Shown here: positions 38,181-53,677 of the stretch, piece by piece
Numbering within the stretch: the stretch's first letter is position 1
Layout: each line of letters begins with the position of its first letter
Assembly (NCBI GenBank): GCA_963784135.1
Contig: CAWAQG010000005.1
Location: 46,823-110,822, forward strand
Direction of reading: 5' to 3'
Origin: Nitrospirota bacterium
GTDB taxonomy: Bacteria; Nitrospirota; Thermodesulfovibrionia; Thermodesulfovibrionales; Dissulfurispiraceae
DNA: 64,000 bases
Translations under genes and position numbers: made by a program
Notes under the pieces: generated by a model
Database searches by the model: none
Seen by the model: only the letters and a program-made list of their open reading frames with translations
Told to the model about the DNA's origin: nothing

Positions 38181-38207
38181 TGCTTAATTCATAATTCTTC
38201 ATACTGT

Positions 38208-38247
38208 TGTCATAATCCTGTAACGTTCGCTTTTGTAAACTTAACCT
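38208..38247 (+). promoter_or_regulatory. Pho-box-like array (11-bp phased): TGTCATA-atcc-TGTAACG-ttcg-CTTTTGT-aaac-TTAACCT
   Basis: The first two units match the E. coli Pho box CTGTCATAAAACTGTCAT at 13 of 18 positions. The array lies about 40 bp upstream of the 38288 gene. Confidence 0.55.
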
Positions 38248-38287: not shown

Positions 38288-38503
38288 ATGAAATGCAAGT
38301 ATTTGAATTTATTCAGGCTGTCCATGCTTGATTGGTCGATCACCTCATGCATGGCCAATGACAGGCCGTACACACCAAGCCTTTCCGAATTACATAATTA
38401 TTGTAAAGGCAAAGAATATACGAAGTGCCCTGTACTGCTGAAGATGGGTTGCGCAGAGAGTGATACCATCTGCACCGAAGTTGCTTTGGCCGAGCAGTGT
38501 TAA
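38288..38503 (+). CDS. Small Cys4-motif protein, family member A
   Basis: Strong SD (AAGGAGGAG). Cys at 3, 21, 39 and 47 gives the pattern C-K-Y-L ... C-x17-C-x7-C-P shared with four other ORFs in the window. Confidence 0.65.
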   Translation: MKCKYLNLFRLSMLDWSITSCMANDRPYTPSLSELHNYCKGKEYTKCPVLLKMGCAESDTICTEVALAEQC

Positions 38504-38545: not shown

Positions 38546-40396
38546 ATGTTAATTATGGCTATCCGGTTAAAATGGCAATTGAGTGGTAATGAGGAAAATT
38601 TTTACGTTGCTAACAATACCAACAAGGCATGCAGGCAGACTATTTTGGATTTGCTCGATCGTAATGCCCTCACTGTACATTTCCAGCCGATCTTTTCTTC
38701 AATTGAAGGAAAGGTTTTTGGATATGAAGCATTAACGAGGATCAAAGGAGAGCATCCTTTCGCTGATATCAGCGAACTGTTCCACAAAGCGGTCCTGACC
38801 AATACGATATCGACACTGGACATCCACTGCAGGGAAAATGCCATTAACCAGGCATCAGCTTTGGGATTAAACACAAAAGAATCTCATTTATTTATAAATG
38901 TATGCCCCGATACAATGATGGACACGGCCTACAGGGCAAGCATAACCGATGAACTGCTGGAGAGATCAGGCATACCGAAAGACCGTATAATTCTTGAAAT
39001 TACCGAAGAAAGCGCCATACATAACTATAATCTTTTCAAGGAATCCATTGAGTATTATCGGGGAAGAGGGTATAAGATAGCCATTGATGATTTTGGCGCG
39101 GGACACGGCGGCCTCAAGATGCTCTCAATTATCGAGCCCGATTTTGTCAAGATTGACCGGCATTTCATATCAAATATAGACAAGGCAATTGTAAAATTCA
39201 ACCTTGTTGATTCAATAGCTACTGCGTGCCATAGAATGGGCATAAAAGTAATTGCTGAGGGCATTGAACAGCAGGAAGAACTTGAGTCTATTCTCAATAT
39301 GGGCATTGAACTGCTTCAGGGATACTTGCTGCATAAGCCGTCTCCCATGTTCAACGGTGATCATGCCTGTATACCTAATTTACATAACAGGAAAAAAAAT
39401 AATATATCGGGCAGGGAGGAACAAAGTTTAATCGGCGAAGTAGCCAATTATGTGGAACCGATACACCCCGATTCATCTGTCATGACCGCATTCAACCGTT
39501 TCATCAAGGACCCGATACTCAGAGGGCTGCCTGCAGTGGATAATGAACAGGTGCTTGGGATGCTCCACAGGAACTGGTTTCTCGAGAACCAGATACTCGG
39601 CAGATGCGGCTACGGCTTTGCGCTGAATTCTTACAAGAACGTATCGAAGCTTATGGACCGCCAGTTCATGGTGGTTGAGTCGAACACGACGCTGGAAGAA
39701 GTGGCGCGCAGAATAAATGCCAGGAAGTCGGAATTCCTTTATGATGATATATGCATTACAAAAAACGGCAAATATTTCGGGACTGTGGCTATCAGCGCCC
39801 TTCTGGATGCGATGACAGAGAGGAGTCTTATTCTTGCAAAAGGGGCAAACCCGCTCTCCGGACTTCCCGGAAATGAATTTATACAGAGGGACATAGAGAA
39901 GAAATTGTCTCAAAACATGCATTTCGATGTTTGTTATGTGGATATCAACAATTTTAAACCGTATAATGACCATTACGGATTTGAAAGAGGTGATATTGTA
40001 ATTAAAAAACTTGCCCAGGTGCTGCAGGAAACTGTACAATCATTCGATACGGGAAGTTTTAATTTTGTCGGTCATATCGGTGGAGATGATTTTATTATCG
40101 TTACCCGGTCGCAGATTTCGATTCCGGTTTGTGAAAAGGTCATTTATCAATTTGAAGCAGAGTTGCCGGAACTGCATGGAGCTGAAGATTACAATAAGGG
40201 AGAATATCTTTCCAAGAACCGCAAAGGCGAGGAGGAAACATTCGGCCTTCTTTCCCTTTCAATAGGAATAGTCAGCACAGAGGTCTACAAGCTCGAGTCA
40301 TATGCCCAACTCGCCTCTATTGCAACAGAAGTCAAGAAGGCCGCAAAATTGCAGAGCGGTTCCTGGATAGAACGCGACAGGCGCAAGATGGGGTAA
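38546..40396 (+). CDS. EAL phosphodiesterase - CBS pair - degenerate GGDEF (GGDDF) signalling protein
   Basis: YEALTR, ILEITEE, DDFGAGHGG, KIDRHF and EGIEQQEE (intact EAL set); a central CBS-like region; a C-terminal cyclase fold with HIGGDDFIIV. Confidence 0.8.
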   Translation: MLIMAIRLKWQLSGNEENFYVANNTNKACRQTILDLLDRNALTVHFQPIFSSIEGKVFGYEALTRIKGEHPFADISELFHKAVLTNTISTLDIHCRENAINQASALGLNTKESHLFINVCPDTMMDTAYRASITDELLERSGIPKDRIILEITEESAIHNYNLFKESIEYYRGRGYKIAIDDFGAGHGGLKMLSIIEPDFVKIDRHFISNIDKAIVKFNLVDSIATACHRMGIKVIAEGIEQQEELESILNMGIELLQGYLLHKPSPMFNGDHACIPNLHNRKKNNISGREEQSLIGEVANYVEPIHPDSSVMTAFNRFIKDPILRGLPAVDNEQVLGMLHRNWFLENQILGRCGYGFALNSYKNVSKLMDRQFMVVESNTTLEEVARRINARKSEFLYDDICITKNGKYFGTVAISALLDAMTERSLILAKGANPLSGLPGNEFIQRDIEKKLSQNMHFDVCYVDINNFKPYNDHYGFERGDIVIKKLAQVLQETVQSFDTGSFNFVGHIGGDDFIIVTRSQISIPVCEKVIYQFEAELPELHGAEDYNKGEYLSKNRKGEEETFGLLSLSIGIVSTEVYKLESYAQLASIATEVKKAAKLQSGSWIERDRRKMG

Positions 40397-40417: not shown

Positions 40418-41659
40418 ATGAATAAAGGATTTCTTTGGGGTGTTGCTACATCCGCCTTTCAGCTTGAGGGCTCTCCGTATGCGGACTGGACCTCATGGGA
40501 CTCCATACTCAATGAAAAGCCAAATGTGACCAATCATTATGCGCTTTACAAAGAAGACTTGCTTCTGCTTAAAGACCTCGGCGTCAACTCCTATCGTTTT
40601 TCCATAGAGTGGAGCAGGATCCAGCCGAGAGAAAACACCTGGGACACCGCATCGCTGGCGCACTACCAGGAGATAGTCGATATCCTTATACAGAACAATA
40701 TCGAACCGATGGTCACACTAAACCATTTTACACACCCCCTGTGGTTTATCAAAAAATATCCCTGGCATGAGGACGCTTCGGTAGATAAGTTCTTAAAATT
40801 TATCGAGAGAGTGGTGGCAACTCTCAAGGGGGTCCGCTACTGGATAACATTCAATGAGCCCTATGTGCTCTTGTTGGGCGGTTATCTTGAAGGCTGCATG
40901 CCGCCCGGTATCCGCAATCCCTCGCTTGCCGTAAAAGCGCTGCAAAACATTCTTGTCTGCCACGGAAAGGCGTATGACCTTATTCATGAGCAGGCAAAAA
41001 AACACGGTATTACTCCGATGGTCAGCGTGGCGCATAATATGGCGGCCCTGGCGCCATGGAACCGGTTCAACCCGCTGGACAGGCTTCTCTCAAGAATAGC
41101 CAAGTACTTTTACAACCATTCTCTGCTCGATGCTTTTTTGACCGGCGTTCTGAAGATAAAGTTCCCCTTTAAAAACGAAATAAACATTCCGGTCCCCATT
41201 AAAAACAAGCTGGACTTCTTTGGGGTCAACTATTATACGCGTGTGCATATACGGTTTAACCCGTTTAAAAAGATGGGGATCGAACTGAGGAACAGGGACA
41301 TTGACGGTTATGGACTGACTGATATGGGATGGGAAATACATCCGCGCGGCCTTGAAAAGGTCCTGAGATATGCTTCAAAGCTTAATGTGCCTCTGATCAT
41401 CACCGAGAACGGTATCGCAACCCGTGACGGACAAAAAAAAATAAAATATATGAAAAGACACGTTGACGCGGTTGAAAAAAGCATCCAGGACGGTATCGAT
41501 GTCAGGGGCTATTTCTACTGGTCTCTGATCGATAACTACGAATGGCTGCAGGGACTCGATGCCAGGTTCGGCCTGTACCGGGTCGACTTCAACACAATGG
41601 AACGTAAACCGACTAATGCCGCGGCATATTACGCGTATATAATTAAAAGCCGGTCATAG
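40418..41659 (+). CDS. GH1 beta-glucosidase
   Basis: Acid/base ITFNEPY and nucleophile ITENG; YRFSIEWSRIQP block. Confidence 0.85.
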   Translation: MNKGFLWGVATSAFQLEGSPYADWTSWDSILNEKPNVTNHYALYKEDLLLLKDLGVNSYRFSIEWSRIQPRENTWDTASLAHYQEIVDILIQNNIEPMVTLNHFTHPLWFIKKYPWHEDASVDKFLKFIERVVATLKGVRYWITFNEPYVLLLGGYLEGCMPPGIRNPSLAVKALQNILVCHGKAYDLIHEQAKKHGITPMVSVAHNMAALAPWNRFNPLDRLLSRIAKYFYNHSLLDAFLTGVLKIKFPFKNEINIPVPIKNKLDFFGVNYYTRVHIRFNPFKKMGIELRNRDIDGYGLTDMGWEIHPRGLEKVLRYASKLNVPLIITENGIATRDGQKKIKYMKRHVDAVEKSIQDGIDVRGYFYWSLIDNYEWLQGLDARFGLYRVDFNTMERKPTNAAAYYAYIIKSRS

Positions 41660-41735
41660 GCCATAAGCTATGGCCTATAGGCAAAGAATTTTCTGTTTTT
41701 TTTGCCCATTGCCCATCGCCTATCGCCTATTGCCA
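41656..41735 (+). terminator. Compound hairpin/terminator made of GGC(C/T)AT-type units
   Basis: ATAGGCCATA-agc-TATGGCCTAT (10-bp perfect stem), then GGCAAA...TTTTTTTTGCC with a T run, then the C-rich repeats cattgcccatcgcctatcgcctattgcc. Confidence 0.65.
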
Positions 41736-41743
41736 TTGATTTT

Positions 41744-41794
41744 CGTAACATAATCTTAATCCGCCCTTAATAATGCTGTAACCAAAGTAATACT
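41744..41794 (+). promoter_or_regulatory. Pho-box-like array: CGTAACA-taat-CTTAATC-cgcc-CTTAATA-atgc-TGTAACC-aaag-TAATACT
   Basis: Five units at exact 11-bp phase, followed by TATTAT/TATATA. The ATG at 41807 follows 5-8 nt later with no SD. Confidence 0.55.
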
Positions 41795-41806
41795 ATTATA
41801 TACCTG

Positions 41807-42496
41807 ATGCTCTTGTGCGATTTTCATATCCACACCACCTACTCCGACGGTTCCGTGGAGTTGAGACGTACCATCGACCTTTTTGGACAAGCAGGATTTG
41901 ATGTTATTGCAATTACTGACCATGTGGTGAACGGCGACAACTCCATTGGAAAGTTTGCCCATCGCTTCAACCTGTCGGTAAGAGAAGACAATTTCGAGGA
42001 GTATATGGAACATATCAGGAAAGAGGCGGCAAGAGCATGGGACAAGTACGGGATGCTGGTGATCCCCGGAGTTGAAATCAGCAAAAATCATCTGTCTTCC
42101 GACAAATCCGCTCACTTGCTCCTTATTGATATAAAGGATTTTATTCCCGCATGCTGGAACTATGAGAAGATCTTTCTTGAGGCAAAGGAACAGGACGCAT
42201 TGATAGTGGCCTGCCACCCTCATTATATGTCGGACATGAGCCGCGACACGCTTTTCCTCTGGAACAACAGGGAGAAATATGCCAAATACATCGATGCATG
42301 GGAAGTAGCAAACAGAGACGACGTCTTCAATGTTATAAGCCTGAAGAAGTATCCCTATGTCGCTAATAGTGACTTCCATAAGGCACGCCACCTGTATTCG
42401 TGGAAAACGCTGCTTAATTGCGAGAAAGATACTGCAGCGGTAAAACAATGTATTAAACACAACAAAGGGGTCGCAATTACCCTTTTCAGAAACTGA
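41807..42496 (+). CDS. PHP-domain metal-dependent phosphoesterase
   Basis: N-terminal CDFHIHTTYSDG and later HP/H motifs (ACHPHY). Confidence 0.75.
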   Translation: MLLCDFHIHTTYSDGSVELRRTIDLFGQAGFDVIAITDHVVNGDNSIGKFAHRFNLSVREDNFEEYMEHIRKEAARAWDKYGMLVIPGVEISKNHLSSDKSAHLLLIDIKDFIPACWNYEKIFLEAKEQDALIVACHPHYMSDMSRDTLFLWNNREKYAKYIDAWEVANRDDVFNVISLKKYPYVANSDFHKARHLYSWKTLLNCEKDTAAVKQCIKHNKGVAITLFRN

Positions 42497-42517
42497 AGCA
42501 CTAATGGAGGGAGGGGT

Positions 42518-43744
42518 ATGGGAATATTCTGGATATTTGCTTCTCTTACTTTTTTAGGTCTTATTGCTTATGGCTTTCAAATATGGGCTGTACGCTCATA
42601 TCTTTCCACTCCCTGTAACTGCGGGGAAGGGCATGCCCTTCCCCGACTTTTTCCCCCAGTTTCGATTCTTAAACCGCTTAAGGGACTGGATGACAATCTG
42701 TACGACAACCTTCTCAGCTTCTGCAATCAGGACTATCCTGAATATGAGATTATATTCTCGCTCCAGAGTCATAATGATCCTGCCTATAAAGTTGCAAGGA
42801 AAATAAGAGAAAAATGCCCTGGCAGAAACATCACCATTATAGTTGAGGCATCCAATGCAGGTCTTAATCCGAAAGTCAATAATCTTCTGCCGGCATATAA
42901 AGCTTCAAGATATGAGTATATCCTTATCAGCGACAGCAATGTAATGGTTGATGAAAAGTATCTCAGGGAAATAACCTGTCAGATAGCGGACCCTGCTGCA
43001 GGCCATGAAATAGGATTAGTAAGCAATATTATAAAAGGTGTCGGCGGCCGTTCACTCGGGGCCGTATTTGAAAATCTGCACCTTAACTCCTTTGTTATGG
43101 GCAGCGTATGTTTTCTCGACAAGTTCCTGAAAATGCCCTGCGTGGTCGGGAAATCCATGCTGATGGGCAAAAAGGATTTGGAGGCAATCGGCGGGCTAAA
43201 AGCGGTAAAAAACATTCTTGCCGAGGATTATGTGCTTGGTGAAAGAATGCGCAAAAGCGGCAAAAAAGTAGTGCTGTCCAGCTATATGGTGCAGAATGTG
43301 AATGAATACTGGGGGATCAGGCGGTTCCTTAACCGTCATACGAGATGGGGCAAGCTCAGGTGGAAGCTCGGCGGCGGGAAATATATATTCGAATTGATCG
43401 GCAACCCCGTATTCATGTCGGCGCTTCCTATTGTATGCTGGCAATGCTCTAAATTGACCGTGACCTTTGCAATTCTCACCGCCCTTCTTAAGGTTGCCGG
43501 CGACTTCTATCTGGGCAGGAAGACGGGAACAGAACTGGACAATCCATTCCTTTACTTGCTTGCTCCGTTTAAAGACCTTCTTATCGGGCTCATATGGCCG
43601 GTGCCGCTTGTCAGCAATACTGTTGTTTGGAGAGGCAACCGGTATAGTATCGGCAAAAATTCTATACTCTCCCCCTGCCCTGAAACCGGTTTCTGGTCCC
43701 TGCGCTACAGGATTATAGATGCAATAAGGGAGAGATTTGCATAA
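42518..43744 (+). CDS. GT2/GT21 glycosyltransferase (ceramide glucosyltransferase / HpnI-like)
   Basis: N-terminal TM; SILKPLKGLD; ISDSN (D2); AEDY (D3); (Q/R)xxRW as RHTRWGKLRW; C-terminal TM helices. Confidence 0.7.
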   Translation: MGIFWIFASLTFLGLIAYGFQIWAVRSYLSTPCNCGEGHALPRLFPPVSILKPLKGLDDNLYDNLLSFCNQDYPEYEIIFSLQSHNDPAYKVARKIREKCPGRNITIIVEASNAGLNPKVNNLLPAYKASRYEYILISDSNVMVDEKYLREITCQIADPAAGHEIGLVSNIIKGVGGRSLGAVFENLHLNSFVMGSVCFLDKFLKMPCVVGKSMLMGKKDLEAIGGLKAVKNILAEDYVLGERMRKSGKKVVLSSYMVQNVNEYWGIRRFLNRHTRWGKLRWKLGGGKYIFELIGNPVFMSALPIVCWQCSKLTVTFAILTALLKVAGDFYLGRKTGTELDNPFLYLLAPFKDLLIGLIWPVPLVSNTVVWRGNRYSIGKNSILSPCPETGFWSLRYRIIDAIRERFA

Positions 43745-43759
43745 GGGAAGCGTGCAAAC

Positions 43760-43993
43760 ATGAATACATATATAACGCAGAGCGAAAGATGCCATACGGT
43801 TGTCGGCTGCGAGCATAGTTGTCCCTATTGTAATAACGAGAGCGGCATCTGTGCAGCCTCTTTGTCACAACTGGCAATCGATACCAGAAGAAGGTCCGGC
43901 TATTGCAATAATGAAAATTACGACAGTTGTCCGATGTTTTTGGCAAGGACCCTGCGAGGGGTCCCCAAAAAATCAAGGACTTTGGGGGAATAG
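43760..43993 (+). CDS. Small Cys4-motif protein, family member C
   Basis: The core pattern Cys are at residues 21, 31, 49 and 57 (C-P-Y-C...C-x17-C-x7-C-P); there are further Cys at 11, 17 and 24. It starts 13 nt after the GT21 stop. Confidence 0.6.
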   Translation: MNTYITQSERCHTVVGCEHSCPYCNNESGICAASLSQLAIDTRRRSGYCNNENYDSCPMFLARTLRGVPKKSRTLGE

Positions 43994-44008
43994 AAGGAGG
44001 TGGAAACT

Positions 44009-44176
44009 ATGTGTCCGGAGTTAAAAGAGGGTTCATGTGTGATAGCGGGTATTGAACCTGAAAAAGTAGCTTGTGCGGACACTCATTGCTGCAACAGCAA
44101 TGAGTGGGACAGGTGCAGAGTCTACATTTCACAATTTTTCCTGACCGGCGCCGGGGCATTCAGAGAGGTTGCATAA
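44009..44176 (+). CDS. Small Cys4-motif protein, family member D (55 aa; below the ORF-track cutoff)
   Basis: ATG at 44009 with AGGAGG 8 nt upstream. Translation: MCPELKEGSCVIAGIEPEKVACADTHCCNSNEWDRCRVYISQFFLTGAGAFREVA. Cys 2, 10, 28 and 36 give the same x17/x7 spacing. Confidence 0.55.
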   Translation: MCPELKEGSCVIAGIEPEKVACADTHCCNSNEWDRCRVYISQFFLTGAGAFREVA

Positions 44177-44181
44177 GACTT

Positions 44182-44221
44182 TGTTACAGTAATGTAACAT
44201 TCTTTTCATATTGCTGTAACA
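44182..44221 (+). promoter_or_regulatory. Pho-box-like array: TGTTACA-gtaa-TGTAACA-ttct-TTTCATA-ttgc-TGTAACA
   Basis: Four units at exact 11-bp phase, immediately upstream of the SD and start of member E. Confidence 0.55.
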
Positions 44222-44257
44222 TTGAGTTGTTATCATACAAAGGAGATGGAAAACAAA

Positions 44258-44479
44258 ATGTATATGGAAAGACTTACAATCTGTCCGCATCTTAAAGGAA
44301 GCCCGGTAGGCGCGGAGTGCCTTGTAGTGAACAAACTTGTCAAGGATATGCAGGATGTGGACATAAGAATATGCATGAGCAGGCGTCATGAAGCGTGTTC
44401 GGTCTATTTCTGCTCTCTGCAAATGGTCGAGGATGGCGGCGCCTATAAGCTTAAGTCGGTCCAGTGTTCCGGGATTTAA
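44258..44479 (+). CDS. Small Cys4-motif protein, family member E
   Basis: AAGGAG at 44240-44245 with in-frame ATGs at 44246, 44258 and 44264; I chose 44258. Cys 9 (C-P-H-L), 21, 39 and 47 relative to that start. Confidence 0.55.
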   Translation: MYMERLTICPHLKGSPVGAECLVVNKLVKDMQDVDIRICMSRRHEACSVYFCSLQMVEDGGAYKLKSVQCSGI

Positions 44480-44485
44480 CACGAA

Positions 44486-44514
44486 AGTAACAAAGCTGTC
44501 ATATTAGTGTAATA
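44486..44514 (+). promoter_or_regulatory. Pho-box-like array: AGTAACA-aagc-TGTCATA-ttag-TGTAATA
   Basis: Three phased units, then TAAAAT at 44524-44529. The GTG start at 44536 lies 7 nt downstream, giving a leaderless-type arrangement. Confidence 0.5.
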
Positions 44515-44535: not shown

Positions 44536-44847
44536 GTGACGGCAGATGCGGTTAAAGAAAAAATTGAAGTAAAGTGTCCGCATTGCAATTTGGATGCTGT
44601 ATATAAATATGGCAAAACGTGGCAGGGGAAGCAGCGGTTTCTATGTCTTATATGCGGCAGGCAATTTACCCAGAGTACAGGGAGATTTGAAGTCAAGGAC
44701 AGACCGGATTGTCCGGCGTGCGGCAAGATAATGCATTTATATAAAAGGGACGATAAAATATTGCGATTCAGGTGTTCGGGATATCCGGTTTGCAAGACAT
44801 TCTGGAAAACTTATATGGAGGGAGCTAATGAGCTACTACATTCATAA
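44536..44847 (+). CDS. Double zinc-ribbon protein (IS1 InsA-like CxxC...CxxC + topoisomerase-type C4 finger)
   Basis: CPHCN...CLICGRQF, then CPACG...FRCSGYPVCK. The GTG start is uncertain. Confidence 0.5.
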   Translation: MTADAVKEKIEVKCPHCNLDAVYKYGKTWQGKQRFLCLICGRQFTQSTGRFEVKDRPDCPACGKIMHLYKRDDKILRFRCSGYPVCKTFWKTYMEGANELLHS

Positions 44848-45199
44848 TGTGCCTGGAAGACTCAGAATTAAAAGCCCGGCAATAAAAAAGAACGAAAACG
44901 TGGCTAACGAACTCAAAATGGCATTGAGTACGATGAACGGGATTGCCACAGTCGACATTAACCTTACTACCGGCAGTCTGCTGGTGAACTATAATCCAAA
45001 GATGGCCAGCCATAAGGACATCATAAGCATACTGCAGCGGAAAGGTTATTTCGATACGACAAAGGCAGCTACCAATGAGCAGTATATTCATAGCGCCGCC
45101 ACTAAAGCCGGCCACCTGGTGGGCAAGGCGGTTTTGGGGGCTTTTGTCCAGGAAGCATTGGAAGGTTCGGCCCTGTCGTTATTAGCTGTATTACTGTAG
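44828..45199 (+). CDS. HMA2/CoBaHMA-like 'PGRxR' domain protein with C-terminal hydrophobic/amphipathic tail
   Basis: HNVPGRLRIKSP...NLTTGSLLVNYNP...ILQRKGY; contains no Cys; tail GKAVLGAFVQEALEGSALSLLAVLL; SD GGAGGGAG. Confidence 0.65.
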   Translation: MSYYIHNVPGRLRIKSPAIKKNENVANELKMALSTMNGIATVDINLTTGSLLVNYNPKMASHKDIISILQRKGYFDTTKAATNEQYIHSAATKAGHLVGKAVLGAFVQEALEGSALSLLAVLL

Positions 45200-45247: not shown

Positions 45248-46033
45248 TCACTCCAATTCCAGACGCAAAAGGCTGTAGCCGTCCCTGACTTTCCCAAACA
45301 CAAAGGAAGAGAGTCTTTTTCTGTCCTCCGTAAAATGGTACAGCGTATGATTGAAGTGAATACGTGCATCAATCCGGCTTAAACCCAGAAGGTTCCAAAA
45401 ATGAGGGACGAACTGCATATCTGAATGCCAGGCAACAGCATCAATTGTTCCGGGCGTCACAGGCATACGATCTATGTGCGAGTATACAATGCTCAAGGGC
45501 AAAATAGGCACCTTGCTGTCTATCGGCGCTTTGAAAAAAACGCTCTTGAAATCTCTGATGGTGAGTCCGTCATTGGTAGTTCCCTCAGGGAAAACCACAA
45601 CACTGATACCGCTCTCGAGGCGCTCCTTAATGGCCTCCAATACTCTGACCGCAGCTGTTTTGGATTCCCTGTTGACAAAAACAGTCCCTGCAAGCTTTAC
45701 CATCCTGCCCAGGAAAACCCAGGAGGCCACCTCCCTTTTTGAGACGAAGACCGAAGGCATTATTGTGCCTATAATGAGTATATCCAGATAGCTGCAATGA
45801 TTACTAACGATGAAGAAGACATCGTTTTGTTTATATGAGCCGGACGGAGTAACATAAATCCCAAGGATAAAACAGTTGGCCCGCGCCCACCACCGCATAC
45901 TATGAGCACGGAGGTGCATTTTCTTTTCAGGCGCAAGAAAAAAAGCTGCTGTTATCAGAATACCGCAGACAAGGAAGACGGGATTGAGTATAAGAAGCAG
46001 AAATAATCTTAATAATTTTATTACGCCCGGCAT
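45248..46033 (-). CDS. Lysophospholipid/lyso-aminolipid acyltransferase (PlsC family; OlsA-like)
   Basis: NHCSYLD (HX4D) and FPEGTT motifs. It overlaps the upstream GNAT gene by 13 nt. Confidence 0.75.
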   Translation of the reverse strand: MPGVIKLLRLFLLLILNPVFLVCGILITAAFFLAPEKKMHLRAHSMRWWARANCFILGIYVTPSGSYKQNDVFFIVSNHCSYLDILIIGTIMPSVFVSKREVASWVFLGRMVKLAGTVFVNRESKTAAVRVLEAIKERLESGISVVVFPEGTTNDGLTIRDFKSVFFKAPIDSKVPILPLSIVYSHIDRMPVTPGTIDAVAWHSDMQFVPHFWNLLGLSRIDARIHFNHTLYHFTEDRKRLSSFVFGKVRDGYSLLRLELE

Positions 46034-46818
46034 AACGTCTCGTCCGACTCCTGGAAAAACCTCCTTTTATAGCGGCTGATGAGCTTTTCTGTTTCGAGGA
46101 GCAAAAAGAGATCGGTTGTACCGAAGATGTCGTCATAAGCCGGCTCTCCGCAGATAAGCGCTCCGAGCCGCAGATATCCCTTGATAAGCGGCGGAAGCTT
46201 CTCGAATGCGGTTTTCTGGTCCACAATGCGGGCCAGGCGTAACCCGAGCAGCTTTTTCATAGGATACACCGTAAATTCGTCGCCCGCCCGGTGAAACGTG
46301 TTCATATAAGAGTATACCATGCTTACTTCATCAGGATCACTGGTATGCAGGCTGCCGCAGCCGAACAAATGGCGCACACTGTATATTTCCATGTACCGGG
46401 CAATGCCGGCCCAAAGCAGGTTGATGACACCCGCATTCCTGTAATCCTTGTGGACACAGGAACGGCCGAGTTCCAGCTTATCGCCACTGATGGCCCTGAT
46501 GGCGGTCATATCGAATTCGCCCTCCGAATAGTAGCCGATATTGTTTTCCGCGACAAAACTCAGGAGCAGGCGATAAGTGCCGACCACCTTGTTACAACGG
46601 GTATCGACAACAATGAGGTGGTCACAATAGTCATCGTAACTGTCCCTGTCCATGCCGGTGATATAAGATCTGTTGAGTCCCTCATTCAATTCCCTGTTAA
46701 ATACATCAAAACGCAGTTTGAGCGCATTTTCCAGTTCTTCGTAATATTCAGCCAGTTTAACAATAAAGTGACCGTTGCGCATGCTCAGAACCGTGCTTTG
46801 ATTCTTTCCCATTATCAC
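46021..46818 (-). CDS. GNAT-type N-acyl amino acid synthase (OlsB/hemolysin-like)
   Basis: Its size, the N-terminal LRFDVFNRELNEGL block and the pairing with a PlsC-family gene resemble olsB-olsA aminolipid loci. Confidence 0.6.
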   Translation of the reverse strand: MIMGKNQSTVLSMRNGHFIVKLAEYYEELENALKLRFDVFNRELNEGLNRSYITGMDRDSYDDYCDHLIVVDTRCNKVVGTYRLLLSFVAENNIGYYSEGEFDMTAIRAISGDKLELGRSCVHKDYRNAGVINLLWAGIARYMEIYSVRHLFGCGSLHTSDPDEVSMVYSYMNTFHRAGDEFTVYPMKKLLGLRLARIVDQKTAFEKLPPLIKGYLRLGALICGEPAYDDIFGTTDLFLLLETEKLISRYKRRFFQESDETLCRA

Positions 46819-46973: not shown

Positions 46974-48161
46974 CTATTTCAGCAGTTGGGCTTTATCAGT
47001 GATTTCCCAGGGCAACCCTATATCCATCCTGCCGACGTGTCCGTAGACAGCGAGCTTCCGATAGAAACCGCCTTTAATGGTAGCAGGCAGGCGCCTCAGG
47101 CTAAATTGTTTTACAATTCCGGCAAGCCTGAAATCGAAATTTTTCTCTACCAGATCGGCAATAATTGTGTCCGGCAGTTTGCCGGTGCCGAACGTCTCTA
47201 CCTGGATGCTCACGGGACGGGAAAGACCTATGGAATAGCTGAGCTGGATTTCGCACTCCTCGGCAAGCCCGGCCGCAACCACATTCTTCGCCGCGTAACG
47301 CGCGGCATACGCGCCGACCCGGTCAATTCTCATGGGGTCCTTGCCGCTGAGTGCTGCACCGCTGTGGCGCGAATACTCCCCATAGGTATCAATGGCATTT
47401 TTTCTGCCGGTAAGCCCTGAATGGATTGACGGGCCGCCGGTTATAAACGGGCCGTCCGGATTAACGAATATTCTCGTATTTTTATCCGGCTTGACAACTT
47501 CATCATGGAAGACATTATCGATAATCGCTTCCCGTATATCGTCTCTCAGCTGTTGCAGCTCAGGGCCGCCGTGCTTATTCTGGCTTGCAATGACCGTTAT
47601 GCTGTGTATCCTGGACGGAATACGGTTTCTGAATTCAACTCCCACCTGTGTTTTCCCGTCCTGGGAAAGATAGGGCAGTATCTTCTGAAGCCTTGCCGAA
47701 GTGAGCCGTCTGGCGAGCTTATGCGCCAGCCATATGGGAAGCGGCATAAATGCGGGGGTCTGATTACAGGCGAAACCAAAAACCGTGACCTGGTTTTTCA
47801 CCGGGATGCTGTCGATTTCACTCTCGGTCAGCTCCCGTTCATCAAAATTGAAGTCCGCATCACGGGGCGATTCTTTGAGGCTTGTCAGGATACTGCATGT
47901 TTTGCCGTTAAACTCATGCTGTTCATAGCCGATCTGGGATATTACCTGGCGCGCTATATAGGGGAAGTCAACCCGTGCCTCAGAGGCAAACCTTGCAGCG
48001 ATGAAGAGAATCGATGTCGAAACAGCGCATTCCGCGATAACACGCGAGTAAGGGTCCTGCTGAAGAAAGTGGTCTACTATGGCATCGCTTATCTGGTCGC
48101 AGAGTTTGTCGGGATGTCCCTCTGTTACCGATTCGGACGTAAACATGAAATCCTTTTTCAT
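46974..48161 (-). CDS. Divergent methionine adenosyltransferase (MetK-like)
   Basis: TSESVTEGHPDKLCDQISDA, GLTGRK, SGKDP..IDR and AYAARY match MetK. The GAGDQG block reads PVKNQV and GGPxGD reads GGPSIH. The start overlaps the ATPase stop. Confidence 0.7.
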   Translation of the reverse strand: MKKDFMFTSESVTEGHPDKLCDQISDAIVDHFLQQDPYSRVIAECAVSTSILFIAARFASEARVDFPYIARQVISQIGYEQHEFNGKTCSILTSLKESPRDADFNFDERELTESEIDSIPVKNQVTVFGFACNQTPAFMPLPIWLAHKLARRLTSARLQKILPYLSQDGKTQVGVEFRNRIPSRIHSITVIASQNKHGGPELQQLRDDIREAIIDNVFHDEVVKPDKNTRIFVNPDGPFITGGPSIHSGLTGRKNAIDTYGEYSRHSGAALSGKDPMRIDRVGAYAARYAAKNVVAAGLAEECEIQLSYSIGLSRPVSIQVETFGTGKLPDTIIADLVEKNFDFRLAGIVKQFSLRRLPATIKGGFYRKLAVYGHVGRMDIGLPWEITDKAQLLK

Positions 48162-51100
48162 ATGGCTTCACCTCGCATAGTTTTCTTGGTGGCTTCATTG
48201 ACAACCAGAGGGAGCAGCGAACTTCCGCCGATTACCAGCGCATCTGTAAGATTTATCGTTGTTGTTCCGAGCAGACCTCTAAGTCCGGGCAATGCTATTG
48301 TCAATGCCTGCAGCGCAAATGAACCTCCGAGGGCCGCATTAAGGTACCTGTTGGAAGGGAGACGCTCTTTGTCAAAGATGCTGAGTTTTTCAGAACGGCA
48401 GCTGATGGCATGCAGAAGCTGACTCGTTGTGAGAGTCATAAAGGCCATTGTCCCTGCCTGTGCTCCGCGGCCGTATCGCGCAAGGCCGTACCCGTAAGCT
48501 CCGAGCGTGGCCGCGCTCATCATTGCCGATTCGAAACCTATCCTTTTAAAGTCGCTGCTCATAATAATAGGATGCTCAGGGTTGCGCGGCGGCTTGCTGA
48601 GGACATCGGGTTCAGGCTGTTCAAGTGCCAATGCCAGTCCCGGGAATATATCGGATATAAGGTTGATCCAAAGCAATTGCATGGCATTGACCGGCTGACC
48701 GAGGCCTCCGGCAATCGCCGTAAACATGACCATAATTTCACTGAGATTGGTCGACAGGAGAAAGTGTACTGATTTCCGGATATTGTTATAAATTGTGCGT
48801 CCGTGGCTTACAGCTATGATCATGGTCTCGAGATTGTCGTCCTCCAGCACAATATCGGCCACCTCGCGGGCGACATCCGTGCCGGTATGTCCCATTGCGA
48901 TGCCTATGTCGGCGGCCTTAAGCGCGGGGCCGTCATTAATGCCGTCGCCGGTCATAGCGACAACTTTCCCGGCGCTCTGAAGAGCTTGCACTATTTGAAG
49001 CTTATGGGCGGGACTTACGCGGGCAAAAACATGGACACGCTCGGCAAGCGCTTTCATGACATCCGGTTCTATATCCGTAAGGTGGGTCGAATCAAGGATC
49101 TCGAGCTGTTCTCCATTGCTCAAATCCAGCTCGTTTCCGATGGCATAGGCTGTAGGGGTCTGGTCTCCGGTTATCATAACTGTTTCTATGCCGGCCTGGT
49201 GGAAGACGCCGATCAGCTCCCTGACTCCCTTTCTGGTGGGGTCTGCCATCCCCACAAGGCCGAGCCAGACGAAACCGCTGCTGATATCGGACCCCGTGCC
49301 GTTGCCGTTTTCAATATGGTGATAAGCGAAGCCGAGGACGCGCAGTGCTTCACCGGCCATTCGCTCATTCTCTGTTTCCATTGCAAGCTTGTCATCATCC
49401 GAGATCAAAATCTTTTCGCCGTCCTTTATATACCAATCGCACATTGCCAGCACTTCCGTAGGACTGCCTTTCAGCGCGACGATCTTGCCCTCCGCGCCGT
49501 AGTCATGGTAGGTAGCCATATAATTGCGGTTTTCAGCGCGGTAGCCTATTTTGAGAAGCGGGTATTTATTTCTGAGCTGCATGATGTCAACCCCTGCGCA
49601 AATAGCCATATGCATAAGGGCATTCTCGGTGGGCGAGCCGCGCAGCACATATTTACCCTCTCCGTTATCATTGTAAGAGCTTCCCCCGGCCGGTTCACCC
49701 GCATGCTCTTTTACAATGATTTCAGATTCATTGCAGAGCACAGCTATATGGATGAGCCTGAGGAACTCGTCCATTGCATAAGGGTTAACCGTCTCCCTGC
49801 CTGCCATAAATTTTCCGTCCGCAACTTTTATCCTCTTCATCCCCGAATGCACAGCAACAACCGTCATCCTGTTCAGAGTTATGGTGCCGGTCTTGTCCAT
49901 GCATATGGTCTGCACCGAGCCGAGCGTCTCGACCGCATTGAGATGGCGTATGAGGACTTTATGCCTCCTCATATTCCTGATTCCCAGAGCGAGGGTCGTA
50001 GTTGCAACGGTCGGCAGCCCCTCGGGCACAGCGGCTACAGCAAGAGAGATCGAGCTTTTGAGCATCTGCAGGAAACCATATCCCCTGAGCAGACCTATGA
50101 CGAAAACAATACCACAGACTGCTCCGCTGATAAGAACAAGCTGTGTGCCCATTTTTTTAAGCTGGCGCTCCATAGGAGTATCGGGCGACTCCGCCGCTCC
50201 CACGAGTTCCTGTATCTTCCCTATCTCCGTGAATTTCCCGGTAGCTACAACTACAGCAAAGCCCTGTCCCCCTGTCACCAGGGTGCCCATATAGGCCATA
50301 TTGACCCTGTCGGCAAGCGGAATATTGTGGCCTGCTATGCTTGCCGTATTCTTTATGACCGGCATGCTCTCGCCGGTAAGGGCGGATTCATCAACGCTCA
50401 GGTGGGCTGTTTCAATCATTCTGCTGTCGGCAGCGATATAGCTGCCGGGCCTTAGTACCAGGATGTCCCCGATTACCACATCCTCGGCAGGGACCTCTTT
50501 ATAAATACTATCTCTTATGACAAGCGCGGAGGGCCTGACAAGGCTTTTGAGCGAATGAATGGTTTTCTCCGCCTGGCTCTCGGTTACATAGCCTATAACA
50601 GCATTGATGCCGACTACTCCTGCAATAACCACTGCATCAGCTATTCCCCCGGTCAGTACCGAAAGACCGGCAGCAACACCGAGCAAAGCATTAGGTATAG
50701 AGTTGAACTGTTCGAGCAGGATGCTCAGTCCGGAACGCGGGACCGATTCAGGCAGGAGATTGGGACCGAATTTCTTTAGCCTGGCTTGTGCGCTTTCACT
50801 TGAAAGTCCCGCAAGTGCCGCGGAATCCAGCCGCTCAAGGATTGCCGATAGTTCGGCGGTATGCCATGCCTCAACCGTCTGGTCCTCGGCGTGGCTGACA
50901 AGTCTTCTTACTTTCCCCCTGCTTTTTATCTCTTTAGCCGGAGCAGAAGACAGCCCGGACTCAGGCCCGGGGCCTGATGGAGGAGCAGTATCTTCCGTCT
51001 GCCTGAAGCTCTCGCCTTTATATTCGAGGACGATATTTTGAATAATCAGGGCAACAGCTTGGGAGGTATTGACGGAATTGAAATAGACGAGAATGCTTCC

Positions 51101-51247
51101 GGTCAATGTGTTTACAGAGACAAGATTAATCCCTTCTCTGCCTGAAAGACCCGATTCAAGATGCTCTCTCAGTGGTTCCGAACGATAAAGTCCGGGCACC
51201 TTGTATCGGGCCCTTCCGGGGATGGCCGCGTGTACTGTCTGTACCAC
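48158..51247 (-). CDS. P2-type (SERCA/PMCA-like) cation-translocating P-type ATPase with N-terminal HMA2/CoBaHMA-like domain
   Basis: DKTGTIT; TM4 VPEGLP; TGDGINDGPALKAADIGIAMG; TM5/6 NLSEIM and WINLISD; N-terminal AAIPGRARYKVP...NTLTGSILVYFNS. Confidence 0.85.
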   Translation of the reverse strand: MVQTVHAAIPGRARYKVPGLYRSEPLREHLESGLSGREGINLVSVNTLTGSILVYFNSVNTSQAVALIIQNIVLEYKGESFRQTEDTAPPSGPGPESGLSSAPAKEIKSRGKVRRLVSHAEDQTVEAWHTAELSAILERLDSAALAGLSSESAQARLKKFGPNLLPESVPRSGLSILLEQFNSIPNALLGVAAGLSVLTGGIADAVVIAGVVGINAVIGYVTESQAEKTIHSLKSLVRPSALVIRDSIYKEVPAEDVVIGDILVLRPGSYIAADSRMIETAHLSVDESALTGESMPVIKNTASIAGHNIPLADRVNMAYMGTLVTGGQGFAVVVATGKFTEIGKIQELVGAAESPDTPMERQLKKMGTQLVLISGAVCGIVFVIGLLRGYGFLQMLKSSISLAVAAVPEGLPTVATTTLALGIRNMRRHKVLIRHLNAVETLGSVQTICMDKTGTITLNRMTVVAVHSGMKRIKVADGKFMAGRETVNPYAMDEFLRLIHIAVLCNESEIIVKEHAGEPAGGSSYNDNGEGKYVLRGSPTENALMHMAICAGVDIMQLRNKYPLLKIGYRAENRNYMATYHDYGAEGKIVALKGSPTEVLAMCDWYIKDGEKILISDDDKLAMETENERMAGEALRVLGFAYHHIENGNGTGSDISSGFVWLGLVGMADPTRKGVRELIGVFHQAGIETVMITGDQTPTAYAIGNELDLSNGEQLEILDSTHLTDIEPDVMKALAERVHVFARVSPAHKLQIVQALQSAGKVVAMTGDGINDGPALKAADIGIAMGHTGTDVAREVADIVLEDDNLETMIIAVSHGRTIYNNIRKSVHFLLSTNLSEIMVMFTAIAGGLGQPVNAMQLLWINLISDIFPGLALALEQPEPDVLSKPPRNPEHPIIMSSDFKRIGFESAMMSAATLGAYGYGLARYGRGAQAGTMAFMTLTTSQLLHAISCRSEKLSIFDKERLPSNRYLNAALGGSFALQALTIALPGLRGLLGTTTINLTDALVIGGSSLLPLVVNEATKKTMRGEAI

Positions 51248-51253
51248 GTACCG

Positions 51254-51919
51254 CTATGCTTCCCTTTTTGTTCTGTGCCTGGTCGAAATCTCAGGTGCAG
51301 AATGAGTCGCCTCCGGCGCTGACGAACGCGGCAGTGCGGAGCCGGCAACTTCCTTCACTCCGGCAACGACGCCGACGAGCATGTCCTTCACAGCGCGCAC
51401 AGCAGTATTGCCGATAGCTCCCGCTGCCTCTATTGCGCCTCCGACAGCAACTGTGGCAGCTTCTTCCACATTACCGCCGACTTCTTTTGTGGCTTCAATT
51501 ACACCGTCCACAGCCCTTCTCGCTACGAGTGCCACATCAGCGCCGACTTCGGCAGCACCCTTGACCGCACCTTTGACAGTCTGCCCCGTAACACTCAGTA
51601 CATCGCCTCCTACATCGCTGACCCCCATTATAATGCCTTTTGCAACACTTTTAGTGCTCAGAATCAGGCCGGTACCAACCTCTTCCGTGGCCTGAATTGC
51701 ACCCTTTACTACATCTTTTGTTACGACCACACCCTCGCTGGTTACAGATGCCGTCGCCTTCAGCGCATTAGAAACAATGTTTCTCACTAAACTCACTATT
51801 TCAGCCTCGATTTCGTTGATTCCTTTCAGACTGCTTACAATGCCCTCTTTCACCTTTGTTCCAGCTGCTCCAATGTTGGCAGCCCTGCCCGGATTGGTCT
51901 TAGCCTCGCCCTTAGTCAT
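51254..51919 (-). CDS. Ala/Val/Gly-rich protein built of about eight tandem 22-residue repeats
   Basis: Repeats align as VVKGAIQATEEVGTGLILSTKS / VAKGIIMGVSDVGGDVLSVTGQ / TVKGAVKGAAEVGADVALVARR / AVDGVIEATKEVGGNVEEAATV / AVGGAIEAAGAIGNTAVRAVKD. Confidence 0.6.
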   Translation of the reverse strand: MTKGEAKTNPGRAANIGAAGTKVKEGIVSSLKGINEIEAEIVSLVRNIVSNALKATASVTSEGVVVTKDVVKGAIQATEEVGTGLILSTKSVAKGIIMGVSDVGGDVLSVTGQTVKGAVKGAAEVGADVALVARRAVDGVIEATKEVGGNVEEAATVAVGGAIEAAGAIGNTAVRAVKDMLVGVVAGVKEVAGSALPRSSAPEATHSAPEISTRHRTKREA

Positions 51920-51997
51920 AATAGCAACCCCCTTTTAGATTGTTATTAATTGTGTTTTTTTGATGTGCCATGCGACGGTTTGACTACACGGCTGCCG

Positions 51998-52486
51998 CTA
52001 CTTGTTCTCCTCACCAGTGGCATGAGGCACTGATTTCAGAAATATATTCAATGAATACCAAAAAGCTGTATACCATGCGGGGGCCGCAAAGTTCCCCCTG
52101 CTGATTTCGTATATACCGAACCCCAGCAGCGTCAGGAAAGCAACTCCGGGGACATCCAGTTCGTTGCCGGTAAGTCTTTTTACTCCCTTATCAAAATCTT
52201 TGAAGGTTTTTACTACATTTCGGGACAGAGCAGGCGTCCCGTTATCTAATTTAATGAGCCTGAAGAGTGAGTTCTCCTCGGCAAAAACAGAAATTGCCTT
52301 TAAATCAGCAGCATGAATGAACACAACACTGCCGGTAAGGGCATTTGCTTCTACTTCCCTTACTCCCTCAAGATGAGTAAAATGGTCTTTCAGATTAGAG
52401 AAATAAGCGGCATTTCCTTTTCTGGAGGGCACTTTTACCCTCGATCTTCCAGGTGTAGAGTGGCATACAATCGCTTCCGGTATCAT
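51998..52486 (-). CDS. HMA2/CoBaHMA-like 'PGRxR' domain protein with C-terminal TM hairpin
   Basis: HSTPGRSRVKVP...NALTGSVVFIH; C-terminal VAFLTLLGFGIYEI...AWYTAFWYSLNIFL. Confidence 0.65.
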   Translation of the reverse strand: MIPEAIVCHSTPGRSRVKVPSRKGNAAYFSNLKDHFTHLEGVREVEANALTGSVVFIHAADLKAISVFAEENSLFRLIKLDNGTPALSRNVVKTFKDFDKGVKRLTGNELDVPGVAFLTLLGFGIYEISRGNFAAPAWYTAFWYSLNIFLKSVPHATGEENK

Positions 52487-52773
52487 TAAGCGCCTGTTTT
52501 ATCCTCGGGGCTGGTCCCGGCTGCCTGATTATGTGACTCCGCCATTTCAGCCTTTACTTCTGCAACGATATCTTCCATCATCTCACCTGCTTCTGCAACA
52601 GCCTCTTTGCTTTTTTCATATAGAATAAGGCTGCCTTTGATAGCGGCTTTTGCAATCGGCTTTATCACTCCCGCCAGTGCCGGAATCACCTGGGGGGCAA
52701 ATAGAGCCGTACCAACACCGATAGCGAGCCCTGTAACTATATTACCCTTTAATCCATTATCAAAAAGTGCCAT
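52486..52773 (-). CDS. DUF5132-like small membrane/amphipathic protein
   Basis: 95 aa; a Gly/Ala-rich hydrophobic N-terminal half (GLAIGVGTALFAPQVIPALAGV), then an acidic helix. The family assignment is from memory of this sequence pattern. Confidence 0.5.
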   Translation of the reverse strand: MALFDNGLKGNIVTGLAIGVGTALFAPQVIPALAGVIKPIAKAAIKGSLILYEKSKEAVAEAGEMMEDIVAEVKAEMAESHNQAAGTSPEDKTGA

Positions 52774-52974: not shown

Positions 52975-53014
52975 TGTCACAAAGTTGTAACAAACCGTTC
53001 ATCATATTGTAAGA
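52975..53014 (+). promoter_or_regulatory. Pho-box-like array: TGTCACA-aagt-TGTAACA-aacc-GTTCATC-atat-TGTAAGA
   Basis: Four units at exact 11-bp phase, about 45 bp upstream of the 53060 start. Confidence 0.55.
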
Positions 53015-53059: not shown

Positions 53060-53314
53060 ATGATCAACTACAGGGTGGTTCACCATGTTCCGGGACGCAT
53101 CAGAGTGCAGGTGCCGATAATCAAAAAGCTTTCTGTTGCAACATTAGAAAAATTAGCCGGGATACCATTACCGGAGGGGATTAAAGATATCCGCGCCAAT
53201 CCGATTACCGGAAGTCTTGTCATAACATATGATCCTGATCATGTTGACATAGAGAAATACCTGGAAAAAATGACGACAGACAGTGAGATAACCTCAACAA
53301 TCGGCATGAGGTGA
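53060..53314 (+). CDS. Stand-alone HMA2/CoBaHMA-like 'PGRxR' domain protein
   Basis: 84 aa: HHVPGRIRVQVP...NPITGSLVITYDP; contains no Cys. Confidence 0.65.
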   Translation: MINYRVVHHVPGRIRVQVPIIKKLSVATLEKLAGIPLPEGIKDIRANPITGSLVITYDPDHVDIEKYLEKMTTDSEITSTIGMR

Positions 53315-53321
53315 TACTGTA

Positions 53322-53510
53322 ATGCCAACCGGTACGGCAAGAAGGGAAAGTCCGCTTCCAAAAGTTGAGAGCAGGCGCCTGAAATGCCCTTACCTTACTA
53401 AATACATCATATTTACCTGTCAGGCAGGAGCTGTCCCTTACGTTCCAAGTTTGTTCCAGCTTGAAGAGTACTGTAAAAGTAAGCAGCATAAGAAATGCCC
53501 TTTGCTGTAA
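53322..53510 (+). CDS. Small Cys4-motif protein, family member B
   Basis: Starts 8 nt after the HMA2-like stop. Cys 22 (C-P-Y-L), 33, 51 and 59. PYVPSLFQLEEYCKSKQHKKCP closely parallels member A (PYTPSLSELHNYCKGKEYTKCP). Confidence 0.65.
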   Translation: MPTGTARRESPLPKVESRRLKCPYLTKYIIFTCQAGAVPYVPSLFQLEEYCKSKQHKKCPLL

Positions 53511-53560
53511 TTAATTAAGATGTTAATTTAATTGACATTGACCGAAAAATCTCCCCTAAC

Positions 53561-53606
53561 CCCTCTTTGCTGAAGAGGGAAAATGCCTCCCTTTTACAAA
53601 GGGAGG
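53561..53606 (+). terminator. Two tandem hairpins CCCTCTT-tgctg-AAGAGGG and CCTCCCTT-ttac-AAGGGAGG
   Basis: Perfect 7- and 8-bp stems downstream of the HMA2/Cys4-B pair and upstream of the pstS promoter. Confidence 0.55.
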
Positions 53607-53648
53607 TCAGGAGGGATTTCATAAGAGGGAGGTGATATGTAATATAGA

Positions 53649-53677
53649 TTTAACATTGGCGTAACATTTATGTAACA
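53649..53677 (+). promoter_or_regulatory. Pho box array upstream of pstS: TTTAACA-ttgg-CGTAACA-ttta-TGTAACA
   Basis: Three 7-bp direct repeats at 11-bp phase, 50-80 bp upstream of pstS, the canonical Pho regulon gene. Confidence 0.65.

Follow-up and report, generated by a model that had tools for sequence, protein, structure and literature searches.

A family of small four-cysteine proteins at a putative phosphate-starvation locus of Nitrospirota

The WhiB-like (Wbl) proteins of Actinobacteria use four cysteines to hold one metal centre and regulate stress responses through protein-protein contacts; their motif is C-x(14-22)-C-x2-C-x5-C together with a G[VI]WGG turn. Two further regulators, PmrD and IraP, bind receiver-domain proteins, and IraP is induced by phosphate starvation. 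In peat, wetland and sediment, how much phosphorus is available is tied to the chemistry of iron and to redox conditions. Here we examined a stretch of 64,000 nucleotides from a Nitrospirota bacterium of the Dissulfurispiraceae (assembly GCA_963784135.1, contig CAWAQG010000005.1, positions 46,823 to 110,822; hereafter the window), in which five short open reading frames (ORFs), termed A to E, encode proteins with four cysteines ending in the pattern C-x17-C-x7-C. These five ORFs are paralogues, D only probably so, of what is almost certainly a real, undescribed family of small proteins, which we refer to as the Cys4 family.

The five genes and their family

The original prediction, made from the sequence alone, had described five ORFs with their cysteine positions, and all five were present on the + strand, with the cysteines at the positions given and the four of them sharing alignment columns. 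Member A (71 residues, type 1; 38288-38503) heads an operon with EAL-CBS-GGDEF and GH1 genes, and member B (62 residues, type 1; 53322-53510), which typifies the family best, begins 7 nt after a CoBaHMA gene. Member C (77 residues, type 2; 43760-43993) follows a GT21 gene after a 15-nt gap and is itself followed, after another gap of 15 nt, by the probable divergent member D (55 residues from its ATG; 44009-44176). The divergent member E (73 residues; 44258-44479) has a predicted Pho-box promoter of its own. A hidden Markov model (HMM) of the family, run over the window, returned exactly these five, with E-values of 3e-18 for A, 3e-22 for B and 1e-17 for C. A six-frame regular-expression scan found C-x17-C-x7-C elsewhere in the window in four strings only, none of which had a CP-x-L start, a C-P end or a match to the family HMM. 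Strong Shine-Dalgarno sequences were read upstream of A (AAGGAGG), B (GAGGTGA, within the end of the preceding gene) and D (GAAGGAGGTG); that of E (AAGGAG) was acceptable and that of C (AAGGGAAG) weak.

GT21-related loci were taken from 43 genomes, the nearest being metagenome-assembled genomes labelled Nitrospirota, Dissulfurispiraceae or Thermodesulfovibrionales, and orthologues of the five members were sought there by tblastn. Among the closest loci (L001 and L003-L012), A had orthologues in three (L003, L005, L006), B in one (L001), C in seven, D in three (L003, L005 and L012 only) and E in eight; nine E orthologues were found altogether, and matches to C extended over 15 of the fetched loci, from L003 to L025. 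Two loci (L007 and L011) gave no tblastn match to any of the five. The orthologues of A to E in the closest Nitrospirota genomes retained the four cysteines. Purifying selection had been proposed as a check on the ORFs, and the ratio of nonsynonymous to synonymous substitution (dN/dS, Nei-Gojobori method, against orthologues) was 0.18-0.25 for A, 0.17 for B, 0.13-0.40 for C, 0.16-0.34 for D and 0.19-0.31 for E, so that all five fell within 0.13-0.40; the neighbouring GT21 gene, used for comparison, gave 0.09-0.12. All five ORFs are coding, conserved genes. Two opposite-strand ORFs, at 43713-43976 and 44129-44482, were rejected as the true genes because it is the + frames that are conserved.

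Searching 1.84 billion representative proteins (clusters at 50% identity) exhaustively with a profile built from an alignment of 19 sequences, we found that the family comprises at least 665 representative clusters at an E-value of 1e-3 or below, with 56 at 1e-10 or below. Word-indexed searches were shallow, with nine homologues returned for B (P0001-9) and five for C (P0010-14). Nearly all family proteins stand alone and are 50-90 residues long, and the consensus C-P-x-L ... C-x17-C-x7-C-P describes a domain of about 45 residues. The C-x17-C-x7-C spacing was exact in 157 of the 161 homologues read, and the four cysteines and x17/x7 spacing pointed out in this locus by the original prediction are thus kept in other genomes. 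The spacing between Cys1 and Cys2 was more variable, with x10 in 114 and x9 in 20 of the 161 and an overall range of x(7-17). Proline followed Cys1 in 133 of 156 homologues and Cys4 in 150 of 157, aromatic residues (Y, F, Y, F/Y) were conserved around the cysteines, and conserved K/R residues were observed near Cys2 and within H-K-K-C-P (median isoelectric point 8.7 over the 161). A start of M-x-C was seen in 58 of the 161 homologues, and therefore these proteins have no leader or signal peptide; the family is predicted to be cytoplasmic.

Two main sequence types were recognised. Type 1, to which A and B belong, follows the motif MKCP[HY]L-x7-C[KR]A-x4-Y.PS.F[QE]L.EYC-x4-H.KCPF[YF], and type 2, represented by C, follows CP[YF]-x5-7-C.ASLS.M.ID-x6-YC..E[ND]YD.CPIFLAK.LR. 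All seven homologues that carried an organism name were from Nitrospirae, Nitrospirota or Thermodesulfovibrionales, and the family loci came from peat, wetland and sediment metagenomes, the hosts being anaerobic Nitrospirota. The only name given to these proteins in the sources was 'hypothetical protein'. The unnamed small Cys4 family that had been proposed as expanded in this locus is real, and no curated family matches it.

On sequence grounds A, B and C are clear family members, with a significant profile match and four aligned cysteines. Members D and E were taken out of the seed alignment before being re-tested by HMM and hhalign. E orthologues then ranked directly below the true members and above the noise (HMM E-value 0.003-0.4), and hhalign matched the E family to the main family with a probability of 91.6% (E-value 8e-7) and all four cysteines aligned; by these profile comparisons E is a divergent family member. 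With the HMM lacking D and E, member D scored an E-value of about 9, within the noise, and its hhalign probability was 26% (P 7e-4), whether it was compared with the family or with the E group. The membership of D therefore rests on its spacing, its MCP-x-LK start and its tandem position.

Some further sequence features were observed among the paralogues. The C-terminal tails of A (C55, C62 and C71; 38450-38503) and E (C51 and C70; 44408-44479) contain extra cysteines that are kept in close orthologues; the distant A-type homologues P0135 and P0147 are without the extra tail cysteines of A. A sixth paralogue type (…MACTFFKESYVGYCSACDFPYTPSIVEMEELCFKNNSESC…) was observed in close relatives, at 2763-2954 (-) of L001 and equivalently at 15563-15754 (-) of L005, where it adjoins an rve-family transposase; it has no counterpart in the window.

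We found no known relative of the family in the resources searched. Against Pfam-A (2025 copy) and NCBIfam 20.0, the five window proteins gave a best E-value of 0.09, far short of the cut-offs, and ten typical homologues gave a single match, Response_reg in the fusion protein P0091 (residues 72-183, E-value 5e-26). A profile search of PDB sequences returned no significant stretch, the best E-value being 0.55 to a RING finger. Full-length B, modelled by AlphaFold2 with the 19-sequence alignment, reached a predicted local distance difference test (pLDDT) score of 49, and the 43-residue core of B with an alignment of 148 sequences reached 91.7. In the core model, strands 6-8 and 12-14 form a beta-hairpin and helices span residues 25-32 and 35-39. 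Cys1 precedes the hairpin, which ends at Cys2; helix 1 ends at Cys3, and Cys4 comes directly after helix 2. No obvious hydrophobic core is present. A Foldseek search with this model gave best E-values of 7 against the PDB and 5 against BFVD, negatives that are weak because queries as short as 43 residues are hard for Foldseek.

Comparison with individual four-cysteine classes gave a similar result. The CxxC (CPxCG) knuckles of zinc ribbons and rubredoxins are absent, all four cysteines being isolated. Nor do the x(7-17), x17 and x7 spacings correspond to Wbl, and there was no Pfam WhiB match. For ferredoxins and high-potential iron-sulphur proteins (HiPIP), only Fer4_12 was returned, with an E-value of 0.88 for C in its non-conserved N-terminus, and no fold match was found. 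The ZAS anti-sigma domain was ruled out, HxxxCxxC being absent. A literature search for a small cysteine-rich protein beside pstS yielded nothing relevant, and a paper on phosphate limitation in Desulfovibrio G20 leaves such proteins unmentioned, with 'cysteine' occurring zero times. The resources searched contain no description of the family, of its fold or of its association with the Pho regulon and CoBaHMA; small Cys4 metal-stabilised regulators are familiar as such.

Gene context and putative phosphate control

The surroundings of family members were examined through exact-protein look-ups and in 80 metagenome loci gathered with a B-type alignment, which retained 34 members after dereplication at 80% core identity; this metagenome sample is biased to type 1 because of the alignment with which it was gathered. 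The most consistent neighbour of the family is pstSCAB-phoU. By look-up, a member was observed directly upstream of pstS in five loci (L046, L050, L052, L135, L136), including the C-type P0198 in L135, which is directly upstream of pstSCAB-phoU-phoU and beside phoB/phoR-like genes. The A-type P0135 in L133 and L134 precedes EAL-CBS-GGDEF and GH1 genes and is divergent from pstSCAB-phoU. In 12 of 29 dereplicated contexts a PstS gene lay at most 500 bp downstream, and a small transmembrane ORF lay between the member and PstS in seven. Immediately upstream, 11 of 28 testable contexts had a gene for CoBaHMA (Pfam HMA_2), a domain described only recently and probably regulatory, which has conserved basic residues and probably binds anionic lipids; a C-type member was upstream in 8 of 28.

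A conserved ORF of 51-63 residues with one predicted membrane helix (MLVSLICLLLLAIAVYFLIKSKPNLF…) was observed between a B-type Cys4 gene and pstS in L077 (4618-4809), L078 (1785-1952), L082 (1547-1702), L101 (827-1018) and L050 (1353-1505). In many cases a Pho-like array directly precedes this ORF, which is absent from the window.

A second, large group of neighbours included no HMA2 gene and was related to two-component signalling. A receiver-only gene was found immediately downstream of the member in 9 of 29 dereplicated contexts, often with a NarL-type regulator upstream where this was testable. The downstream receiver resembles the N-terminal half of that regulator and stops soon after the receiver domain, too early for an output domain to follow at the C-terminus. 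One homologue (P0091/P0166; L048, 6001-6567) is a fusion with the Cys4 domain N-terminal and the receiver C-terminal, and it is surrounded by histidine kinases (including a hybrid kinase), with a sigma-54 regulator upstream; unannotated ORFs of 95 and 94 residues flank the fusion in L048. Less frequent downstream neighbours were HD-GYP (2 contexts) and a large PHP protein (1 of 29). In the raw loci, a member directly before a protein of 700-800 residues with a PHP-like N-terminus was seen in L066, L072, L116, L118 and L126. Members in Pst-type loci have Pho-like arrays beside them, which NarL-type loci lack. The contexts thus fall into two classes, one of phosphate-starvation loci and one of two-component loci.

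We scanned the window for Pho boxes as three TGTNA-type units in 11-bp phase, with the expectation taken from shuffles and the consensus borrowed from E. coli, which may not be that of Nitrospirota. Three-unit arrays gave 12 hits against 0.37 expected, all of them in four intergenic regions. The arrays, all on the + strand, precede E (44182-44221; TGTTACA/TGTAACA units in 11-bp phase), the Zn-ribbon/CoBaHMA gene pair (44475-44514), the CoBaHMA-B operon (52975-53014; TGTCACA-TGTAACA-GTTCATC-TGTAAGA, with 52975-53003 from the scan and the fourth unit by eye) and pstS (53638-53677). A single 18-bp Pho-box-like site (TTGTCATAATCCTGTAAC; 38207-38224, +), with two TGTNA units 11 bp apart, lies 64 bp before A and scores below the three-unit threshold; counted by eye, it agrees at 14 of 18 positions with what we take to be the E. 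coli Pho-box consensus. The site at 41744, before the PHP gene of the PHP-GT21-C-D row, is periodic but weak. Of the upstream arrays described in the original prediction, those of E (44182) and of the B operon (52975) were thus recovered, with A having only a single box and the site at 41744 being weak. Every window copy lies in an operon with Pho-box-like sites upstream, and from these sites Pho control of the window copies appears very likely. Between the stop codon of B and the Pho boxes of pstS (53550-53625) there are also two inverted repeats rich in G+C, cccctctttgctgaagagggg and cctcccttttacaaagggagg, which may be a terminator or repeat element separating the B and pstS transcripts.

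A candidate adaptor and its rivals

We favour, with a probability of about 0.5, a reading in which the family is a metal-stabilised (Zn or iron-sulphur, Fe-S) module that serves phosphate-starvation signalling as a partner or adaptor. The four invariant cysteines would hold one metal centre, either Zn(Cys)4 or an Fe-S cluster, around which the domain would fold. The folded domain would bind the signalling protein encoded beside it, be it a receiver, a CoBaHMA protein or an EAL-GGDEF enzyme, and this binding would tune the phosphate-starvation response, possibly in a metal- or redox-dependent way. That the family binds metal is highly probable from the invariance of the cysteines and the confident fold; a metal centre would be needed because a chain of 43 residues has both a confidently predicted fold and four invariant cysteines. 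The isolated cysteines, the two C-P motifs, the aromatics and the hosts' anaerobic life tip the balance slightly, but not decisively, from Zn to Fe-S. Action by binding partners is a more tentative part of this reading and on balance somewhat doubtful. The domain may bind the product of the adjacent gene because the order within the fusion matches that of the Cys4-receiver gene pair and because the pairs with CoBaHMA and EAL-GGDEF genes are tight; the latter pairs are probably translationally coupled.

Several points weigh against the adaptor reading. Metal binding is deduced from sequence and a structure model, the models are of monomers, and partner contact is read from gene order and one fusion. 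The neighbours are heterogeneous, including CoBaHMA, receiver, PHP, HD-GYP and EAL-GGDEF proteins, large secreted proteins and PstS alone, and therefore one common partner is unlikely. The gene neighbourhood may mirror co-regulation by phosphate only, and not physical contact. The Pho-box calls themselves depend on the E. coli consensus, perhaps not that of Nitrospirota, and the sites before A and before C/D (41744) are weak. Finally, D is a probable, weakly supported member of the family.

The leading rival to this reading, which we consider unlikely, is that the proteins are Wbl-like Fe-S sensors of redox state or iron acting on transcription. A [4Fe-4S] or [2Fe-2S] cluster would report redox, nitric oxide or iron status, and the holo- or apo-protein would reshape expression of the Pho regulon by binding to RNA polymerase, a sigma factor or a response regulator. 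Like Wbl, these are small proteins restricted to one lineage, with several paralogues per genome; their four invariant cysteines are dispersed singly and not as CxxC knuckles, with proline after Cys1 and Cys4 and conserved aromatics (Y, F, Y, F/Y) around them, and regulators adjoin members in anaerobic hosts. However, neither sequence nor fold matched Wbl, HiPIP, ferredoxin or any Fe-S family, the cysteine spacing is unlike that of all known Fe-S families compared, and the present data fit Zn as well as Fe-S. The basic character of the proteins (median isoelectric point 8.7, with K/R near Cys2 and in H-K-K-C-P) would suit a different role, that of a mini zinc finger binding DNA or RNA and serving as an output domain, free-standing or attached to a receiver as in P0091. 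One receiver fusion, arranged as in a response regulator, and the NarL-context receiver paralogue with no room for an output domain of its own also agree with this idea. We nevertheless judge it improbable: there is no similarity to a known nucleic-acid-binding finger, the domain is very small for sequence-specific binding, and a Cys4 domain N-terminal to the receiver is an unusual order.

The contexts also bear on the roles suggested in the original prediction, which had considered the proteins as metallochaperones, redox switches or partner-switching regulators for an HMA2/ATPase module. As metallochaperones or metal buffers they would give Zn or Fe to metalloenzymes of phosphate starvation such as the PHP phosphoesterase. 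C and D do come after PHP-GT21 in the window, five raw metagenome loci have a member directly before a large PHP-like protein, and neighbours of the HMA superfamily are common. Against this, CoBaHMA has been described with basic residues and probable anionic-lipid binding rather than metal binding, the large PHP neighbour occurred in just 1 of 29 dereplicated contexts, a buried tetra-cysteine site that holds a fold together is a poor metal donor, and a receiver fusion and NarL-receiver contexts make no sense for a chaperone. With pstSCAB-phoU, NarL-receiver pairs and the fusion as its contexts, the family gives the metallochaperone idea little support, and we regard it as a poor candidate. The link to HMA_2 genes was borne out for the B type, through its upstream CoBaHMA genes; the family is not specific to the HMA2/ATPase module. 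The suggestion of a partner-switching regulator is closer to the observed contexts, with receiver and CoBaHMA proteins as the likely partners and not the ATPase. The very short ORFs and the lack of curated matches could also point to chance ORFs or to secreted, ribosomally synthesised and post-translationally modified (RiPP-type) cysteine-rich peptides, an explanation to which we give almost no weight. Chance ORFs were ruled out by dN/dS, that is by purifying selection, and by hundreds of homologues. Secreted or RiPP peptides were rejected: 58 of 161 homologues have the domain beginning at residue 2-3, which leaves no leader, and in the loci examined no recurring maturase, radical-SAM or exporter genes lay alongside.

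A more specific form of the favoured adaptor reading, and an unlikely one at present, is that the proteins are Nitrospirota-specific Fe-S (or Zn) switches that dock to receiver or CoBaHMA domains and make the phosphate-starvation response iron- or redox-dependent. The response so governed would take in Pst uptake, the shift to phosphorus-free lipids and the turnover of cyclic di-GMP. Such switches would be a functional counterpart, with an unrelated fold, of Wbl or of the two-component connectors.

Neighbouring genes and described systems

The neighbours named in the original prediction, HMA_2 genes on two occasions, an EAL-GGDEF gene after A and a GT21 gene before C and D, were confirmed by Pfam. 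On the + strand, the EAL-CBS-GGDEF gene (38546-40396) is directly downstream of A and is followed by GH1. The PHP phosphoesterase (41807-42496) and the GT21 glycosyltransferase (42518-43744) precede C, and a GH1-PHP-GT21 block recurs in L046, L100, L102 and L105. After E are genes for an InsA-like Zn-ribbon protein of 103 residues (44536-44847) and, overlapping it, a CoBaHMA/HMA_2 protein (44828-45199), both assigned by Pfam. Zn-ribbon, CoBaHMA and B-type Cys4 genes were consecutive in L065 (948-1641) and L105 (5273-6126), which suggests a recurring three-gene unit. A second CoBaHMA (HMA_2) gene, for 84 residues by Pfam, precedes B at 53060-53314 (+), and downstream of B is the pstS-pstC-pstA-pstB-phoU operon (53729-58031, +), assigned from its ORFs and the Pfam labels of the L001 orthologues.

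Genes for an OlsB-like Acetyltransf_5 protein and a PlsC-like acyltransferase were observed at 45248-46818 (-), near GH1-PHP-GT21 (40418-43744, +). By sequence the former are likely an ornithine-lipid pair and the latter a glycolipid module, and together the two would form an island of phosphorus-free lipid synthesis inside a Pho locus; the roles of GT21 and OlsB/PlsC here are presumed from what is generally known of those families. With Pst uptake, glycolipid and ornithine-lipid enzymes and cyclic di-GMP turnover, the locus looks like a phosphate-starvation island.

A further row of genes on the - strand (46974-52773) is operon-like and divergent from the Pho-box array at 52975. It consists of DUF5132 (52486-52773), a CoBaHMA protein of 162 residues (51998-52486), a Gly/Ala/Val-rich repeat protein of 221 residues identified as an ORF with no Pfam match (51254-51919), a P-type ATPase of 1029 residues with an N-terminal HMA_2 domain (48158-51247) and MetK (46974-48161), the others being Pfam assignments. 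From DUF5132 to MetK the row is largely kept in L056, L059 and L132, and L052 retains the ATPase and MetK only. In Microcystis, the calcyanin gene ccyA is also flanked by DUF5132, CoBaHMA and a cation transporter, and the bacteria in which intracellular carbonate formation has been reported include Nitrospirota.

The Cys4 family is a sizeable one that is absent from curated resources, with a confident predicted fold that has no structural relatives, and it marks phosphate-starvation loci of anaerobic Nitrospirota. It provides the poorly understood CoBaHMA domain with a recurrent small partner gene and single-domain receivers with a candidate interactor. If the four cysteines turned out to hold an Fe-S cluster, or Zn in a redox-labile site, the proteins would offer a direct route for iron or redox state into Pho signalling. 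The members are short (55-77 residues here, with D below the usual 60-residue cut-off) and annotated 'hypothetical' where called, and thus illustrate concretely how small proteins with a function are missed by routine annotation.

Among described systems, CoBaHMA shares operons with the Cys4 family and is a neighbour, not a relative: its fold is a ferredoxin-like HMA fold with conserved basic residues and differs from that of Cys4. Zinc ribbons, rubredoxin-type knuckles and ferredoxin or HiPIP domains resemble the family in being four-cysteine domains of 40-80 residues, metal-stabilised as the Cys4 domain is predicted to be, and in having cases of proline after a ligand cysteine. They differ in using CxxC or CxxCxxC, whereas all cysteines of the Cys4 family are isolated. 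As functional analogies, Wbl and the two-component connectors or anti-adaptors PmrD and IraP appear to be the nearest. Both of the latter are free-standing proteins of under 100 residues and known or proposed binders of receiver-domain proteins, a property suggested here by gene order and the fusion; they have no relation to the family in sequence or fold and are without a Cys4 site. Wbl proteins are likewise small and lineage-restricted, with several paralogues and four invariant cysteines, but the pattern here is C-x(7-17)-C-x17-C-x7-C, the phylum is a different one, and the metal centre of the Cys4 family is a predicted one.

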